Counted from the stretch's first letter, positions 15,975-49,689 are shown. The stretch: 64,000 bases of DNA from Promethearchaeota archaeon (GCA_016839705.1 JAEOTR010000017.1:1-64000); one strand, 5' to 3'. Translations and numbers: made by a program. The notes: generated by a model from the sequence alone, not told the origin.

Positions 15975-16778
15975 TTAAAATTCATCCATATCGTCTTCGT
16001 CTCCGAATTCCTCTTCTTCGACACGAGGTGCAAGGAAATAGCTTAGTTTCCCACCTTCAAGAAGATCAAAATTCATTTTTAACGGATGATCTGTTTTAAG
16101 GGATATTTCTAATTTTTCTGTGATAGAGGCTATCTTTAGTATTGCTTTTAGGAATGTTAACGAATATGCCCCACTACTTGAACCTTGAAGTTGACTTTCA
16201 ATCAAATCATCTTCATTGAGGTCATATACCATTTCACCAATTTGTCCAGAGGAGCTAAAGACAAGACCTTGTCCTTCATTTGCGTTTATGTTGAGGATTT
16301 CTGAGTAAATTTCCGCGTCTTTTATTGCTTCAACCAAGAAATCTGTATCTATTACCCACTTTGAAGGATAATCTATTTTGAGTAAATTATCCATTGGGAT
16401 TTCTTCGATGTCAATATCTAATAATGCTAAGCTAAATGTCCTGGTTCTAGATACACCCTCCCTTTGCATTTTAATTTTTATCTTTTGGTCAGCCTCATTA
16501 AAATCTATTTCAACTGTGTCATTGGCAGCACTTCTTTTTAAGATTTTATCTAGATCATCTAAATTTAATCCAACTTTCGATTCTGTACTACATTCATATT
16601 CATCAAAATTATCCTTCTTAATGGATAATTTCAGAAGACAGATTCTACTTGGATCCATCGCTGAAATAGTAAACTCTTTAGGAGTGACTCGAAATTCCGT
16701 TTCATCAATGATGCTGGCAAGAGTTTCAACAATTCCTTTTAATATCCGACTATTTTCTAATTTTAACGTGAAGCTCAT
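15975..16778 (-). CDS. pcn: DNA sliding clamp PCNA
   Basis: AMDPSRICL, YSLTFL, YFLAPRVE; acidic C-terminal tail. Confidence 0.97.
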   Translation of the reverse strand: MSFTLKLENSRILKGIVETLASIIDETEFRVTPKEFTISAMDPSRICLLKLSIKKDNFDEYECSTESKVGLNLDDLDKILKRSAANDTVEIDFNEADQKIKIKMQREGVSRTRTFSLALLDIDIEEIPMDNLLKIDYPSKWVIDTDFLVEAIKDAEIYSEILNINANEGQGLVFSSSGQIGEMVYDLNEDDLIESQLQGSSSGAYSLTFLKAILKIASITEKLEISLKTDHPLKMNFDLLEGGKLSYFLAPRVEEEEFGDEDDMDEF

Positions 16779-19852: not shown

Positions 19853-21808
19853 CTATTTCTTATTATTTCCGAATGTGAAAGCATTTATCTTTGAATCAAA
19901 TAATAATTTTAATTGTTTTTTTTCATTATTTTCATCGAAATGAAATTTTTGATTGAAAATAGATCCCCCATCAATTAAATTCTCAAATTTTCTGAAATAG
20001 TTAACCTTTTTTGTCAATGATAGTAGAGAGTTCTCTCTAATGATTCTGGAGGAATATCTATTTAAACCTTCCTCCCTACTTTTGATTTCACTATGCCATG
20101 AATCCTTTAGATAGTTGTCATCATGTGGTTGATTTAATATATATCTTTCATTTTCCTCTTCATTCTGTTCTTCAATAATTCTTCGCATTCCTGTAAAAAT
20201 TTCTAGGGCAAATTTTAAACTACTTTCTGTTCTGTCAAGTTCTATTCCACAATGATTTATAACAGCTTCATTTAAACCAAAAAAGCTGATCCCTTTTATT
20301 GATTCCTGAATTAAATTCTCTCTATGGCTTTTAAAAATTTCCGAGCTTAAAGTATCCCACTTCTTATTAAATTTTAATTTCTTTGTCACTAGATCTTTTT
20401 TATAATTGAATAGTTCAAAAACTAGATTTAGTTTATCTTGTAATAGTTCAAAAAATAAACCATCATTTTGATTTGCTTCCATTGAAATCATGTGCAAATT
20501 AATTAGAATCTTATCTAAGATGATCTCGTTGGACATTGGATTGTCTATCTTAATCAGTGTAGAATTCAGCAAATTTGAACATGAGTTATTGTAAATAATT
20601 ATATTTTGTCTTAGAGAATTCGATAGATGTTCAAATATTAAATTATTTTGTGAATAAAAATTAGCAAAGTCTGAGAAACCAAATTCTAATAATAGTCCCT
20701 TATTATTTGTATAATTGTTATTCAAAGAATCTAAAAATAATTTAGCAATGTGATTCACATTTTGAGATTTAAATTCTAAAGTTAAATGATGTTGATTATC
20801 TTGGAAATTTTCATTATATCTGTGCATTTGAGATGTCAGTAGGTTTATCAGATGAGTATTATTTTCTAGTCCATTGTATTTGAATAGAAAATTATTGTCA
20901 AAATCGCCCAATACTATATCTTCAGTAATATATTGCTTAATTTGATATAAAAAATCAAAAAGATTTAAAATTATATTAATAGAATCTTTCCTTTCAGTAA
21001 ATTGGTTTGATGAATTTGAATAATTATTGAATATGTATTCTAGTACGGTATCAGTTTTTATGTAGATGCTCAAGGGTCTTAAACTCCAATAGTTTAAATG
21101 AAGGAGGGCTATTTCTCCAGATAAATACAAATCGGCTAAATTCTTTGGAAGTAGATTCAATAATAAAAACTGCTCAGAAACATCTGAGCCTAATTTCTTG
21201 ATAAATTTATCTGGTGTAAATTCCTTTAAATTGAATAATTTAGATGCTTCATAAGGTGGTGTACCTAATCGAGTAAGCTTGTGCCTTACTTCCTCTAAAC
21301 CATTTTCTAATAAAATCGCATTTATATACTCACGCATCAATGGAGTAGTTAAATATTCAATATTTGTCCTAGCTAAGCGTTCTTCCACTTCATGAGCAAT
21401 TTTTCTAGCTAAAAACCGCTCCATTCTACCCTCAGTTATAAGATAATCTTCAATCTTGCTTGAATCAAAACTCTCTTTAGAATATTTTGAGGTTCTAATC
21501 ACTCGCGTTTTAGATTTATCTAGAAGGATTTGTTCGATTGATACAATATTCTCTAAAATTCGTTTCCCTAATTTAGTAATATAATAACCATATTCTGTTG
21601 AATTAATCAAATCGCATTTTTTTAATTCATTTAAATGAAATGAGAAATTAGGTGAAGAAAAATCACCTTCCAAAACATCTCTCTGAAGTTTTGAAAAGGA
21701 TAAAGGATTTTGAGAGTGGTTCAGCTTTTTCAAAATATCTATCCTTATCTTTTGACCTAATGTTTTTAATTGTTTTCCTAATAAATCCTTATTTTTGTCG
21801 GAATTCAC
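19853..21808 (-). CDS. ArsR-like wHTH + ATP-cone + degenerate class III ribonucleotide reductase (NrdD)-like domain
   Basis: RIDILKKL..LSFSKL..FSFHLNELKK..YYITKLG; VIRTS..FDSSKI..TTPLMREYINAILLE; LYLSGEI, ISFFGLNEAV, IDGGSI; no RxxGY. Confidence 0.8.
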   Translation of the reverse strand: MNSDKNKDLLGKQLKTLGQKIRIDILKKLNHSQNPLSFSKLQRDVLEGDFSSPNFSFHLNELKKCDLINSTEYGYYITKLGKRILENIVSIEQILLDKSKTRVIRTSKYSKESFDSSKIEDYLITEGRMERFLARKIAHEVEERLARTNIEYLTTPLMREYINAILLENGLEEVRHKLTRLGTPPYEASKLFNLKEFTPDKFIKKLGSDVSEQFLLLNLLPKNLADLYLSGEIALLHLNYWSLRPLSIYIKTDTVLEYIFNNYSNSSNQFTERKDSINIILNLFDFLYQIKQYITEDIVLGDFDNNFLFKYNGLENNTHLINLLTSQMHRYNENFQDNQHHLTLEFKSQNVNHIAKLFLDSLNNNYTNNKGLLLEFGFSDFANFYSQNNLIFEHLSNSLRQNIIIYNNSCSNLLNSTLIKIDNPMSNEIILDKILINLHMISMEANQNDGLFFELLQDKLNLVFELFNYKKDLVTKKLKFNKKWDTLSSEIFKSHRENLIQESIKGISFFGLNEAVINHCGIELDRTESSLKFALEIFTGMRRIIEEQNEEENERYILNQPHDDNYLKDSWHSEIKSREEGLNRYSSRIIRENSLLSLTKKVNYFRKFENLIDGGSIFNQKFHFDENNEKKQLKLLFDSKINAFTFGNNKK

Positions 21809-46686: not shown

Positions 46687-47688
46687 TTAATCTTCATCTT
46701 CGGACCATCCAAGTTCTTTTAGTACGGAACCTAATGTTTCTGATTCTTCTTCCAATACAAATTCTGTATCATATTCTGATGCAGAAGATTCTATATCAAA
46801 ATCAGGAGGCGCTAATTCTTCAAGAGAGGGTAAATCACTCAATGGGGGGAGTACTTCTTCTGTTGGGGTTCTATCAGGAACACTTATTTCTTCTATTGGT
46901 GATATTTTTTCAGAAACGGGCTCATCCTCAATTTCCATTGGAGCATATTCATCAAGAGGGATAGGAGGAACCTCATCATCGTATACTTCAAATTCTGGTT
47001 GAGATTCAGCTATAGGGGTTTTCTCCACTAATAATGGGGTCGTCTCGATAATTTTTGCTTCTTTAACCTCTTTTTCTATCCCCAGTCCAACGGATTTAGG
47101 GATTGAAACAATTTTAGTCGCATGAGTCGGTTCAAGTTCCTCAAATTCTTCGTCTTCCTTTTCCCAATCATCTAAAAAACCCAAAAGATCATCTAAGGCA
47201 GCTTTATCTTGTTCAACTGATGGTTTTTGTAATGTTAAAACTTCTTCCTCTTCGATTTTCTTTAATTCGGATTTTTCCAATGAAAGAACCATTTCTGTTT
47301 CTTTATCACCAGAAATTAATTTATTTAATTTTCGGGCTACTTCTCTTAAATAACCCAGATAATATCCAATTCGATAAACTGCACTTAATCCTCCAAATAC
47401 AATAAATTCATCATTAATCGCCATTAATATGCTATATCCGGAGGAGTTATGCAAAAGGATTTCCGTTAAAGCTCCGTGATCGGTTGCTTGATTTAATCTT
47501 AAACCTAAATCAATTAATGCCGTACTTGAAGCGGATGTCGCATCTGCGTCTAATTCTGAAGAGAAAGCAGTTGCTACCTTCATTCCTACCCGATCTAGAA
47601 CGATTAAATTCTCAAGATCAGTTTTATTTTCTTCCTCTTTTAAAACATACATCATTTTTTCTCTTATCTCTTCTTGAATCGACGACAT
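46687..47688 (-). CDS. Roadblock/LC7 domain protein with long acidic disordered tail
   Basis: LIVLDRVGMKVA..ASSTALIDLG..GALTEILLH..GYSILM; ~200-aa E/P-rich tail. Confidence 0.78.
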   Translation of the reverse strand: MSSIQEEIREKMMYVLKEEENKTDLENLIVLDRVGMKVATAFSSELDADATSASSTALIDLGLRLNQATDHGALTEILLHNSSGYSILMAINDEFIVFGGLSAVYRIGYYLGYLREVARKLNKLISGDKETEMVLSLEKSELKKIEEEEVLTLQKPSVEQDKAALDDLLGFLDDWEKEDEEFEELEPTHATKIVSIPKSVGLGIEKEVKEAKIIETTPLLVEKTPIAESQPEFEVYDDEVPPIPLDEYAPMEIEDEPVSEKISPIEEISVPDRTPTEEVLPPLSDLPSLEELAPPDFDIESSASEYDTEFVLEEESETLGSVLKELGWSEDED

Positions 47689-47781: not shown

Positions 47782-48489
47782 TTATAAGAACTCAGATAGG
47801 TTCATTTGAGTTGTAGAGGGTTGTTGCATCTTTTCAAAAGAATAATCTGATAGATCACTTATAATATTCTTAATTTTATTAACTACCTCATCTGGAGTTA
47901 ATTTTTCGGTATCGATAGTAAATACATTTGTTCTATCAGTTAAAAACTTCTTATAGAACGCGAGAATTTTTAGCAGATAATTTCTGTCATTTTCATTCCA
48001 TTCTATTCGAATTAAATCTAATGAACCTCTCCGAATTATCCTTTTTAAAATAGTTTCAGGTTTTGCTGTTAAATATATTATATAATCCTCTTTCCATTTA
48101 ATGGATTTGTAAGTGTCGAGGATAAGGTTATAATCTTTTTCTTGGAGATTTAAGCTTTTTGAATAGACCAGCACACATAATGGCGTTCTATCCAAAATTA
48201 TTATTCTTCCATTATATTTATTATCAAAATTAAGAATATTTTGATTTCTTCGAATGAGTTGTTGTAAAAAATGTAACTCACTCCTAAATCCAATTTGTTT
48301 ATCGGAGGATCCAAAAGGAAAGGGGGGTTTCTTGACGTACCTTTCAGGGAAAAACTTAAATTTGTTGTTATCCTTGACACATTTTTTTAAAGAATTGAAG
48401 ACCTTTGTTTTCCCTACACCATGAGCACCAGCAAAAGACAAGATAATGTTGTCTTTAGAACCCTTATTTCTGTAAAAAGTTTTGCTCAA
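47782..48489 (-). CDS. Deoxynucleoside/thymidylate kinase family protein with C-terminal PIP-like motif
   Basis: FAGAHGVGKT, ILDR, IYLTA..TILKRIIRRG; ends QMNLSEFL. Confidence 0.85.
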   Translation of the reverse strand: MSKTFYRNKGSKDNIILSFAGAHGVGKTKVFNSLKKCVKDNNKFKFFPERYVKKPPFPFGSSDKQIGFRSELHFLQQLIRRNQNILNFDNKYNGRIIILDRTPLCVLVYSKSLNLQEKDYNLILDTYKSIKWKEDYIIYLTAKPETILKRIIRRGSLDLIRIEWNENDRNYLLKILAFYKKFLTDRTNVFTIDTEKLTPDEVVNKIKNIISDLSDYSFEKMQQPSTTQMNLSEFL

Positions 48490-48615: not shown

Positions 48616-49689
48616 TTAAAAAAATATTAAAGAAACTATAAGAATATTATACAAAATATTTGTTATAAGGGTACTATAAATATTCCCATTTGTTACTTCA
48701 AAGATAATCCCAATTATTAGAAAACTAATGAAATTTAGAAAAAAATACACAGGGTTAGGATTTAATACTAACATCAAAATTGTATATGCTAAAGCTACTA
48801 TAACAATTACGTATATCCTATTTTTAAATTTCTGCTTTAATGCGTTATGTAATACGCCCCTGTATGCTATTTCTATTGAGAACGTTCCTATAACCATTAA
48901 CACTATAAGTAAGAAAACCCAGATGAAATCAGCATCTCTTATTATCTGGTTTTGCATAGCGACATCTGAAATCACACTAGATAAGTCTAATCCAATATTC
49001 GCCAAATTGTTAATTAAAGCACTAAAAAGAAAGTCGAAGAGAATTAAAAGTGCAGCGCCAATGGCACCAATAATAATACTAAATAAAATCTTTTTAGAAT
49101 CTTTAAAAAACCCTAATTTTTCAGAGCTGTGTTTCTTAGAATAAATATAATATAGAGGGTAAATACCAAATAATGCTTCAGGAATCTGGCTTATTAAAAA
49201 CATCTGGATATTTAACTCGATAGTCTCACTTCCTCCCTGAGAAACTAATAAAAAGTATATAAGAAAGAAAACAATTATGTAAATATACATACAAGTGCCA
49301 AAAACATTTAAACCTTCTCTTAGATTCCATTGGTCTTTTTTTAGAAGAAATTTTTGTTCAAGTTCCAGTTTTTTATTGGTAAATATTAAACCAGGCTTTT
49401 TTTTGATTACTTCTTTTTTTGCTTCTGAAACTCTTTCTAAAACAGTATCACAAATTGGACATTGATCTAAAATAGTTGAATTGACGAGAGACCCACATCC
49501 TGGACATTTACGAGAAATCTCAGCTTTTTGAATTGAAGTCGGTTTATAGATGATTTGTGGTTCTTTGAGTTCTTTACTCCCATTAAGTTTAATAACAAGT
49601 TTACCGCAATTCGGGCAATAGGTTTTAGTACCAACATCAGTTCCACAATAAACACAGTATTTAATTTTTTTTTCGTTGTTTTTGGACAT
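48616..49689 (-). CDS. Zn-ribbon + degenerate CPBP-family membrane protein
   Basis: Four CxxC pairs; IEIAYRG in place of EExxFRG; conserved His absent. Confidence 0.78.
   Translation of the reverse strand: MSKNNEKKIKYCVYCGTDVGTKTYCPNCGKLVIKLNGSKELKEPQIIYKPTSIQKAEISRKCPGCGSLVNSTILDQCPICDTVLERVSEAKKEVIKKKPGLIFTNKKLELEQKFLLKKDQWNLREGLNVFGTCMYIYIIVFFLIYFLLVSQGGSETIELNIQMFLISQIPEALFGIYPLYYIYSKKHSSEKLGFFKDSKKILFSIIIGAIGAALLILFDFLFSALINNLANIGLDLSSVISDVAMQNQIIRDADFIWVFLLIVLMVIGTFSIEIAYRGVLHNALKQKFKNRIYVIVIVALAYTILMLVLNPNPVYFFLNFISFLIIGIIFEVTNGNIYSTLITNILYNILIVSLIFF

Follow-up and report, generated by a model that had tools for sequence, protein, structure and literature searches.

The window analysed here is a stretch of 64,000 nucleotides from a Lokiarchaeum-like Asgard archaeon (GCA_016839705.1, JAEOTR010000017.1:1-64000) with a genome of 3.36 Mb, 31% GC and 93% completeness. 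Its minus strand carries a gene for a small kinase that ends in a motif of the PCNA-interacting (PIP) type, and a gene for PCNA itself. The features of the two genes, with the evidence used to define each, are listed below.

47782..48489, minus strand: coding sequence of the kinase, dNK/TMPK superfamily, 235 residues plus stop codon, TTG start (open reading frame list, Pfam, homologues, AF2)
47851..48450, minus strand: kinase core, residues 14-213, five-stranded P-loop NMP/dN-kinase fold with LID (fold and profile matches)
48406..48429, minus strand: P-loop, residues 21-28, G-A-H-G-V-G-K-T (alignment A1)
48187..48192, minus strand: D100-R101, the D/E-R-S/T motif of dNK/TMPK kinases (at least 90% conserved in A1; aligns to DRS/DRT)
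48025..48042, minus strand: LID arginines, residues 150-155, R-I-I-R-R-G (R150 and R154 at least 90% conserved)
47809..47850, minus strand: linker, residues 214-227, a short helix YSFEK followed by a variable Pro/Ser/Thr stretch (drop in pLDDT)
47785..47808, minus strand: PIP box at the extreme C-terminus, Q228-M-N-L231-S-E-F234-L235 (sequence reading, conservation, complex model)
15975..16778, minus strand: PCNA, 267 residues, proposed docking partner (TIGR00590, PF00705)

Read base by base, positions 47782-47784 are the stop codon of the kinase and positions 47785-47820 encode PSTTQMNLSEFL, that is, P224-S-T-T-Q228-M-N-L231-S-E-F234-L235. At the other end the protein begins with MSKTFYRNKGSKDN, an N-terminus that is common to its homologues. 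Hundreds of these are full-length, and the closest come from MAGs labelled Promethearchaeota or Lokiarchaeota.

A first-pass annotation of this locus had described the protein as a kinase of deoxynucleosides (dN) or dNMPs. Its membership of the dNK/TMPK superfamily was borne out by Pfam, profile and fold comparisons. The Pfam dNK model matched at 4.2e-10 (40.2 bits versus a cut-off of 27) over profile positions 2-196 of 203, and Thymidylate_kin at 1.1e-8 (35.5 bits versus a cut-off of 27), the latter over its C-terminal half only (profile positions 79-185). Matches in NCBIfam were all sub-threshold, with the dTMP kinase model TIGR00041 reaching 32.5 bits versus a cut-off of 83.25. When PDB was searched with a profile of the kinase family, dAK/dGK entries came first (1.6e-19 to 3e-19, with 8PUU at 1.6e-19) and thymidylate kinases (TMPKs) followed at 2.6e-16. 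The AF2 model of the kinase (mean pLDDT 88.7, pTM 0.84) is confident for residues ~12-216, the same span as is covered by its fold matches. The best PDB matches of the model in Foldseek were the Giardia deoxyadenosine kinase (dAK) 8PUU and human dCK, at ~2e-9 (1.6e-9 for the top match), a TM of ~0.69 and 20-22% identity. VIA-align superimposed the model on 8PUU with a Z of 19.8 and an rmsd of 2.6 over 191 residues, and dNKs and TMPKs tied at Z 18.5-19.8 over ~180-194 residues (TMPKs ~19, dCK/dGK ~19). Since these Z values tie and the dNK/TMPK sequence motifs of the kinase are a mosaic, we dropped fold comparison as a means of discriminating dNKs from TMPKs; the superfamily part of the earlier call stands, and the fold does not separate its two candidate acceptors, dN and dNMP.

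The catalytic motifs of the kinase are intact. In the 43 sequences of alignment A1, which reaches down to 25% identity, G26 and K27 never vary, and G21, H23, G24, E49, D100, R101, R150 and R154 are conserved to 90% or more. E49 aligns to the catalytic Glu of the EPV motif of dNKs in the profile alignment, D100-R101-T102 aligns to the DRS/DRT of the Giardia and Mycoplasma dAKs, and R150...R154-G aligns to RIKERS/RIKKRG in the LID of dNKs. The non-TK1 dNKs (human dCK and dGK, Drosophila dNK, and the Mycoplasma and Giardia dAKs; PF01712) are the best profile and fold matches, at 22-24% identity, and have in common with the kinase the P-loop, the Glu at the EPV catalytic position, the DR[ST] motif and the Arg-rich LID. 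Unlike them, the kinase has a GxHGxGK[TS] sequence, a C-terminal PIP tail, a PPFPFGS loop that is invariant in and specific to its family, and Glu71 in the column that holds the base-binding Gln (F-Q motif) of 8PUU and 2JAS in the HMM alignment; Glu71 is itself invariant in alignment A3. With the thymidylate kinases (PF02223; type II with LID arginines) the kinase shares FPER-like and DR motifs, the tied fold scores and the profile match mentioned above, but it matches half of their Pfam profile, fails TIGR00041 and is not the only Tmk of its genome. Some sources label the family 'thymidylate kinase', and PHROGs returned only generic families of that name. The reading of the protein as the housekeeping Tmk was rejected, since the genome has a separate canonical Tmk at another locus (C87:109004-109543; 159.7 bits over the full profile). 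We conclude from these comparisons that the kinase is an accessory member of the dNK/TMPK superfamily that is predicted to be active, with a deoxynucleoside slightly favoured over a dNMP as its acceptor.

The last eight residues of the kinase, QMNLSEFL, match Q-x-x-[LIM]-x-x-[FYW]-[FYWLI] and are by sequence a canonical PIP box, which is what the first-pass annotation had proposed for this octet; the flexible linker that it placed before the motif was likewise found. In the AF2 model the kinase core ends with a helix at residues 199-213, after which the last ~20 residues have a pLDDT of 53-55 and include a one-turn helix at residues 231-234. As confidence is low beyond helix 199-213, the motif lies on a flexible tail.

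How often such an ending occurs by chance was estimated across the genome's open reading frames of at least 100 residues, using the pattern Qxx[LIVM]xx[FWY][FWYLIVM] on the last 14 residues and on random internal windows of 14 residues. The motif was found at 20 of 3077 C-termini versus 5.6 ± 2.2 of 3077 random internal windows (~0.2%), which is a 3.6-fold enrichment. Its bearers include the known clamp clients PolB (LQKDLSCFI), FEN1 (QVSLDDFLKSS), PolD DP2 (QHQLADFF) and NreA (QRTLDRFL), and a C-terminal fragment of a Y-family polymerase also ends in the motif. Since the motif is found on the genome's known clamp clients, the tail of the kinase is in line with the way PIP boxes look in this organism. 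Chance would account for some 5-6 of the 20, for example the matches on ATCase, the A-ATPase B subunit and GDH.

The further bearers of the motif include two DUF72 proteins and one N6/N4 DNA methylase. DUF72 is a family without assigned function whose TIM barrel is related to UV-damage endonuclease (PMC11791011). One DUF72/YecE-like protein, on contig C76 (818-1690, plus strand), ends in KGQIGLDKFIK, and the other, on contig C22 (15672-16475, minus strand), ends in NTQKTLVDFMK. Across 28 genomes of the order, at 40-73% identity, the tails of the C76 protein keep [QR]xxL[DEN]x[FWY]φ after divergent linkers. Judged from these endings and from the kinship of their fold to UV-damage endonuclease, the C76 and C22 proteins are likely to be clamp-bound repair enzymes. 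The DNA methyltransferase (PF01555, 3.8e-65; contig C49:71600-72436, minus strand) has the PIP-like ending EDQNHLMKYI, which hints at clamp-coupled DNA methylation. A 656-residue protein without a clear family (weak CapR match only; contig C25:32999-34969, plus strand) ends in the PIP-like DDQKKMDNYL.

Conservation of the motif in orthologues, which the first-pass annotation had named as a check, was found, and it extends to relatives at 38-48% identity. Nearly all of 120 close homologues (at least 75% identity) keep STTQMNLxx[FY]φ; in a minority the final residue is Ser or the chain stops at the Phe. At the species level we used 79 genomes (61-84% identity) from the 80 closest genomes of the A3 search, all of those returned being labelled Promethearchaeota/Promethearchaeia or mislabelled Asgard MAGs, and looked for the motif within the last 20 residues. 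The strict motif was present in 75 of the 79. In all 75, position 1 is Q, position 4 is L/I, position 7 is F/Y and position 8 is L/I/V/F; at least six different residues occur at position 5, position 6 alternates between K, D, E and N, and the linker varies from -3 to -7. The anchor positions of the PIP box are thus selectively conserved, and the spacer and linker are free. The protein ends 0-1 residues past the motif in 69 of the 75 genomes, and a segment just upstream, S-G/D-Y-S-F-x-K, is also conserved in the species-level genomes. In CRL4-Cdt2 substrates a PIP-degron combines T-D at positions 5-6 with a basic residue at +4; this role was rejected for the kinase, as it has no T-D at positions 5-6 and proteins that end so soon after the motif have no +4 basic residue.

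The same pattern extends to more distant relatives. Searched exhaustively, a set of 1.84 billion representatives yielded a narrow kinase family, with 13 representatives at E<1e-30. Relatives with 38-48% identity have unrelated linkers that cannot be aligned and retain endings of the form Qxx[LI]xx[FWY]φ (QAKLTNFI, QKFLTAWF, QKLLDSWF, QLKLDAFY, QQTLDKFW, QKKLTEWV, QNTLDRWA and QTSLSNYF). Proteins of the sister family f2 end in QSKLSDWV, QSKLTNWI, QKKITSWI, QKKLTHWL and QKVLDSWL. Counted over unique relatives whose tail is 12 residues or longer, the strict motif occurs in 105 of 118 at 60% identity or more, in 5 of 5 at 50-60% and in 19 of 25 at 40-50%. The exceptions in this tally are nearly all variants at one position, such as QMNLDKFS and QNTLDRWA, and the remainder either run on past the motif, which then lies internally, or come from a truncated gene call. 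Also among the one-position variants are the endings of genus g3, in which the Gln has been lost (FKDISKFL and HLDLTKFL), so Q is not indispensable in that genus.

These data bear on the possibility that the motif merely resembles a PIP box and serves a contact other than PCNA, whether intramolecular, in a dimer or with another partner. PIP-like motifs are short, the chance expectation for this genome's C-termini is as given above, and the conserved segment upstream of the motif could belong to a larger surface. Nevertheless, AF2 leaves the tail unpacked and at low confidence, and fixed positions 1, 4, 7 and 8, free positions 5-6 and an F/W/Y swap across clades are exactly the pattern of a PIP box. 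The motif also lies at the extreme C-terminus, as in the bona fide clamp clients of this genome, and in the complex model described below the tail docks in the PIP pocket, with controls at 0.00. We regard a non-PCNA contact as very unlikely.

In a phylum-wide sample of 301 genomes, the kinase was found in 65 of 68 genomes of the window's own family (f1), in 7 of 7 of the sister family f2, and in 4 of 5, 3 of 3 and 6 of 6 genomes of families f10, f15 and f21, respectively; none was found in the other families searched, which include f9 (76 genomes) and f7 (28 genomes). The homologues from f10, f15 and f21 are ~200 residues long and stop right after the core, without a tail or motif. A maximum-likelihood tree of the core columns, from which the tail was excluded and long branches were removed, and which has no independent root, has one branch (SH-aLRT 88.8) that separates all 28 tail bearers from the 19 tailless proteins. 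This topology fits a tail that arose once, in the ancestor of the order formed by f1 and f2. Two more distant archaeal relatives of the kinase, at 28-32% identity, are P0147, with the ending QKNLKGF, and P0150, with the ending QRSLKEFNCSKD; P0150 (L070:618-1244) lies on an archaeal contig that encodes Rpb7, Spt4 and NFACT. Their endings may represent an independent PIP-like tail on a related kinase; being too few and too weak, they were not called as a second origin.

Gene order was also compared across the family. In the window the kinase gene lies between a gene for a Roadblock/LC7-like protein whose long tail is acidic and rich in Pro (46687-47688, minus strand) and one for a double-zinc-ribbon CPBP (Rce1-like) membrane protein (48616-49689, minus strand). 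This trio of CPBP-type membrane protease, kinase and Roadblock-like protein is syntenic across the family, and partly so in a relative with 44% identity. For the latter relative, P0124, the neighbourhood is that of the window, with the Zn-ribbon/CPBP protease and the kinase followed by Pus10, L21e, Rpb4, DUF655 and KsgA, and P0124 is therefore a positional orthologue of the window's kinase. A function for the kinase was not taken from its neighbours, since gene order reflects relatedness and the CPBP and Roadblock proteins have no link to nucleotide or DNA metabolism. A viral or defence origin was rejected as well, as the PHROGs matches are generic only and the conserved linkage to genes for ribosomal proteins and RNA polymerase speaks for a chromosomal gene.

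The proposed partner, which the first-pass annotation had already identified as PCNA, scores 128 bits versus the TIGR00590 cut-off of 99. It is the only PCNA found in the genome (one PF00705 match genome-wide) and is 90% identical to one that NCBI labels Lokiarchaeum sp. GC14_75. It has an acidic C-terminal extension, EEEEFGDEDDMDEF, of which the terminal E-F is conserved among close homologues. The window also encodes the primase PriL. About 3 kb from the PCNA and PriL genes, within an open frame of 660 residues, there is a second, divergent NrdD-like match (19898-20539, minus strand; 46.7 bits); the main NrdD is on contig C70.

Residues 196-235 of the kinase, cut from alignment A1, were modelled in complex with the window's PCNA (alignment A2), together with three controls comprising two unrelated partners and one unrelated 'PCNA'. 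Three runs gave an ipSAE of 0.67, 0.70 and 0.67, versus 0.00 for the controls; the ipSAE mark used, which 58 of 80 solved complexes and 2 of 110 mismatched pairs reach, is only a rough one, as the alignments are self-made. At least 75% of contacts are common to the runs, and the partner pLDDT is 61-64. In the model, kinase residues 224-232 and 234-235 touch PCNA residues 41, 44-48, 127-132, 161, 204, 206, 231-232 and 248-255; residues 41, 44-48, 127-132, 231-232 and 248-255 correspond to the clamp's hydrophobic pocket, its interdomain connector loop (IDCL) and its C-terminal strand. L231 contacts PCNA residues 45-48, 232 and 250, and Q228 contacts residues 206, 250 and 252. As modelled, Q228, L231 and F234 would enter the classical PCNA pocket with the geometry of solved PIP-PCNA complexes, and the canonical pocket is thus where structure prediction placed the tail that the first-pass annotation had assigned to this clamp. 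The docking pass may reflect likeness to those solved complexes; since they exist, the model says that the tail resembles a PIP peptide, not that it binds. The tail also resembles the archaeal PIP consensus peptide KTTQSTLDSFFK of PDB 1RXM (PMC4929162).

The docking model and the conservation of the motif would serve equally well if PCNA binding were a matter of regulation rather than supply, with the clamp switching or sequestering the kinase, so that salvage is coupled to S-phase-like states, or with the kinase competing for sites on the clamp. Small PIP-bearing regulators of PCNA are found in archaea and eukaryotes (PMC4929162). The full conservation of the catalytic motifs argues that the kinase is not a mere PCNA-binding decoy, and we consider a regulatory role quite unlikely.

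We think it probable, though well short of assured, that the protein is a kinase of the dNK/TMPK superfamily that is docked on PCNA by its PIP tail and phosphorylates deoxynucleosides or dNMPs at sites of DNA synthesis. The common ancestor of one Lokiarchaeia-type order would have acquired, on its kinase, a flexible C-terminal extension of ~22 residues that ends in a PIP box. Q228 would occupy the Q-pocket of the homotrimeric PCNA, and L231, F234 and L235 would insert into the hydrophobic pocket under the interdomain connector loop, so that the tail takes up one subunit of the clamp. The linker of ~14 residues would then hold the kinase domain near the front face of the DNA-loaded clamp, beside a polymerase, FEN1 or other clients. 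As dNKs are usually dimeric, a dimer of the kinase would bring two tails to each clamp ring. Tethered in this way, the kinase could phosphorylate deoxynucleosides or dNMPs where DNA is made or resected, taking substrates from salvage or those freed by proofreading, flap or primer processing, and the effect would be to feed precursors locally. The membership of the superfamily with intact catalytic motifs, the disordered tail, the selective conservation of the anchors, the enrichment of such motifs on known clients of this genome and the single origin of the tail come from the data above, and the docking comes from a model; it is the substrate and the physiological purpose of the kinase that we infer here. 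A class III RNR (NrdD) was found in the genome, and searches of the genome for TK1 and for class I/II RNR found none; since dNTPs are made here by class III RNR acting on NTPs, the need for a dN/dNMP kinase tethered to the fork is not obvious.

That most clamp clients act on DNA itself also counts against local supply, and it leads to a reading in which the clamp guides a dNK-fold kinase to a substrate on DNA instead of a free nucleoside or nucleotide. Such a substrate could be 5'-OH ends, as for a polynucleotide kinase in nick or Okazaki ligation, or a modified base in new DNA. Almost all known PIP clients work on DNA, including PolB, FEN1, PolD, NreA, the Y-family polymerase, the DNA methylase and the DUF72 proteins of this genome; Glu71 in place of Gln and the PPFPFGS loop mean that the substrate pocket differs from those of characterised dNKs, and the short linker would keep the active site close to clamp-bound DNA. 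However, the matches found by sequence and by fold are all small-molecule kinases of dN or dNMP that have a closing LID, no polynucleotide-kinase family appears among the Pfam, NCBIfam, PHROGs and top fold matches, and the tailless homologues in other Asgard families indicate that the core works without a clamp. We therefore hold a DNA substrate to be unlikely. If true, it would mean a PCNA-guided DNA kinase in the closest prokaryotic relatives of eukaryotes, and we know of no description of this class in archaea.

On the preferred reading of a clamp-docked dN/dNMP kinase, our analysis suggests that an enzyme of DNA-precursor metabolism has been brought to sites of replication or repair. It has long been asked whether the enzymes that make dNTP precursors are physically linked to the replication machinery, and the evidence is mostly indirect ('replitase', dNTP channelling). 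Here, if true, one small soluble kinase would carry the coupling in a simple peptide that can be read, mutated and measured, and this in the archaeal lineage closest to eukaryotes, for which cultured relatives and recombinant PCNA are within reach. As a predicted client, the kinase would widen the catalogue of archaeal clamp clients beyond enzymes that act on DNA. More generally, a scan of Asgard genomes for C-terminal PIP boxes recovers known clients together with unexpected ones, among them this kinase, the DUF72 proteins and the DNA methylase.

No kinase is among the archaeal PCNA partners covered by a 2016 review (PMC4929162), and our literature search found no nucleoside or nucleotide kinase that has a PIP box or is named as an archaeal PCNA partner, nor anything relevant on the partners of PCNA in Asgard archaea. 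This agrees with the first-pass annotation, which knew of no such described partner, and a PIP-tailed nucleoside/nucleotide kinase appears to be new to the literature searched. Like the archaeal clients with a C-terminal PIP box (FEN1, PolB, PolD DP2, RFC-L, RNase HII and NreA), the kinase has Qxx[LI]xx[FYW]φ at the extreme C-terminus of a flexible tail, with a T-T-Q lead-in, the same pattern of anchor conservation and a predicted docking in the pocket, IDCL and C-terminal strand. Unlike in those clients, the cargo of the tail is a nucleoside/nucleotide kinase domain and not a DNA-acting enzyme.

Replisome-linked dNTP synthesis is represented by the dNTP synthetase complex of phage T4, the eukaryotic 'replitase' idea and the recruitment of TMPK and RNR to DNA damage sites. 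Compared with these systems, the arrangement proposed here is alike in that precursor-forming enzymes are placed next to DNA synthesis. It differs in that the link would be a simple clamp-binding peptide on one kinase, readable from sequence, in contrast to a loose multi-enzyme aggregate.
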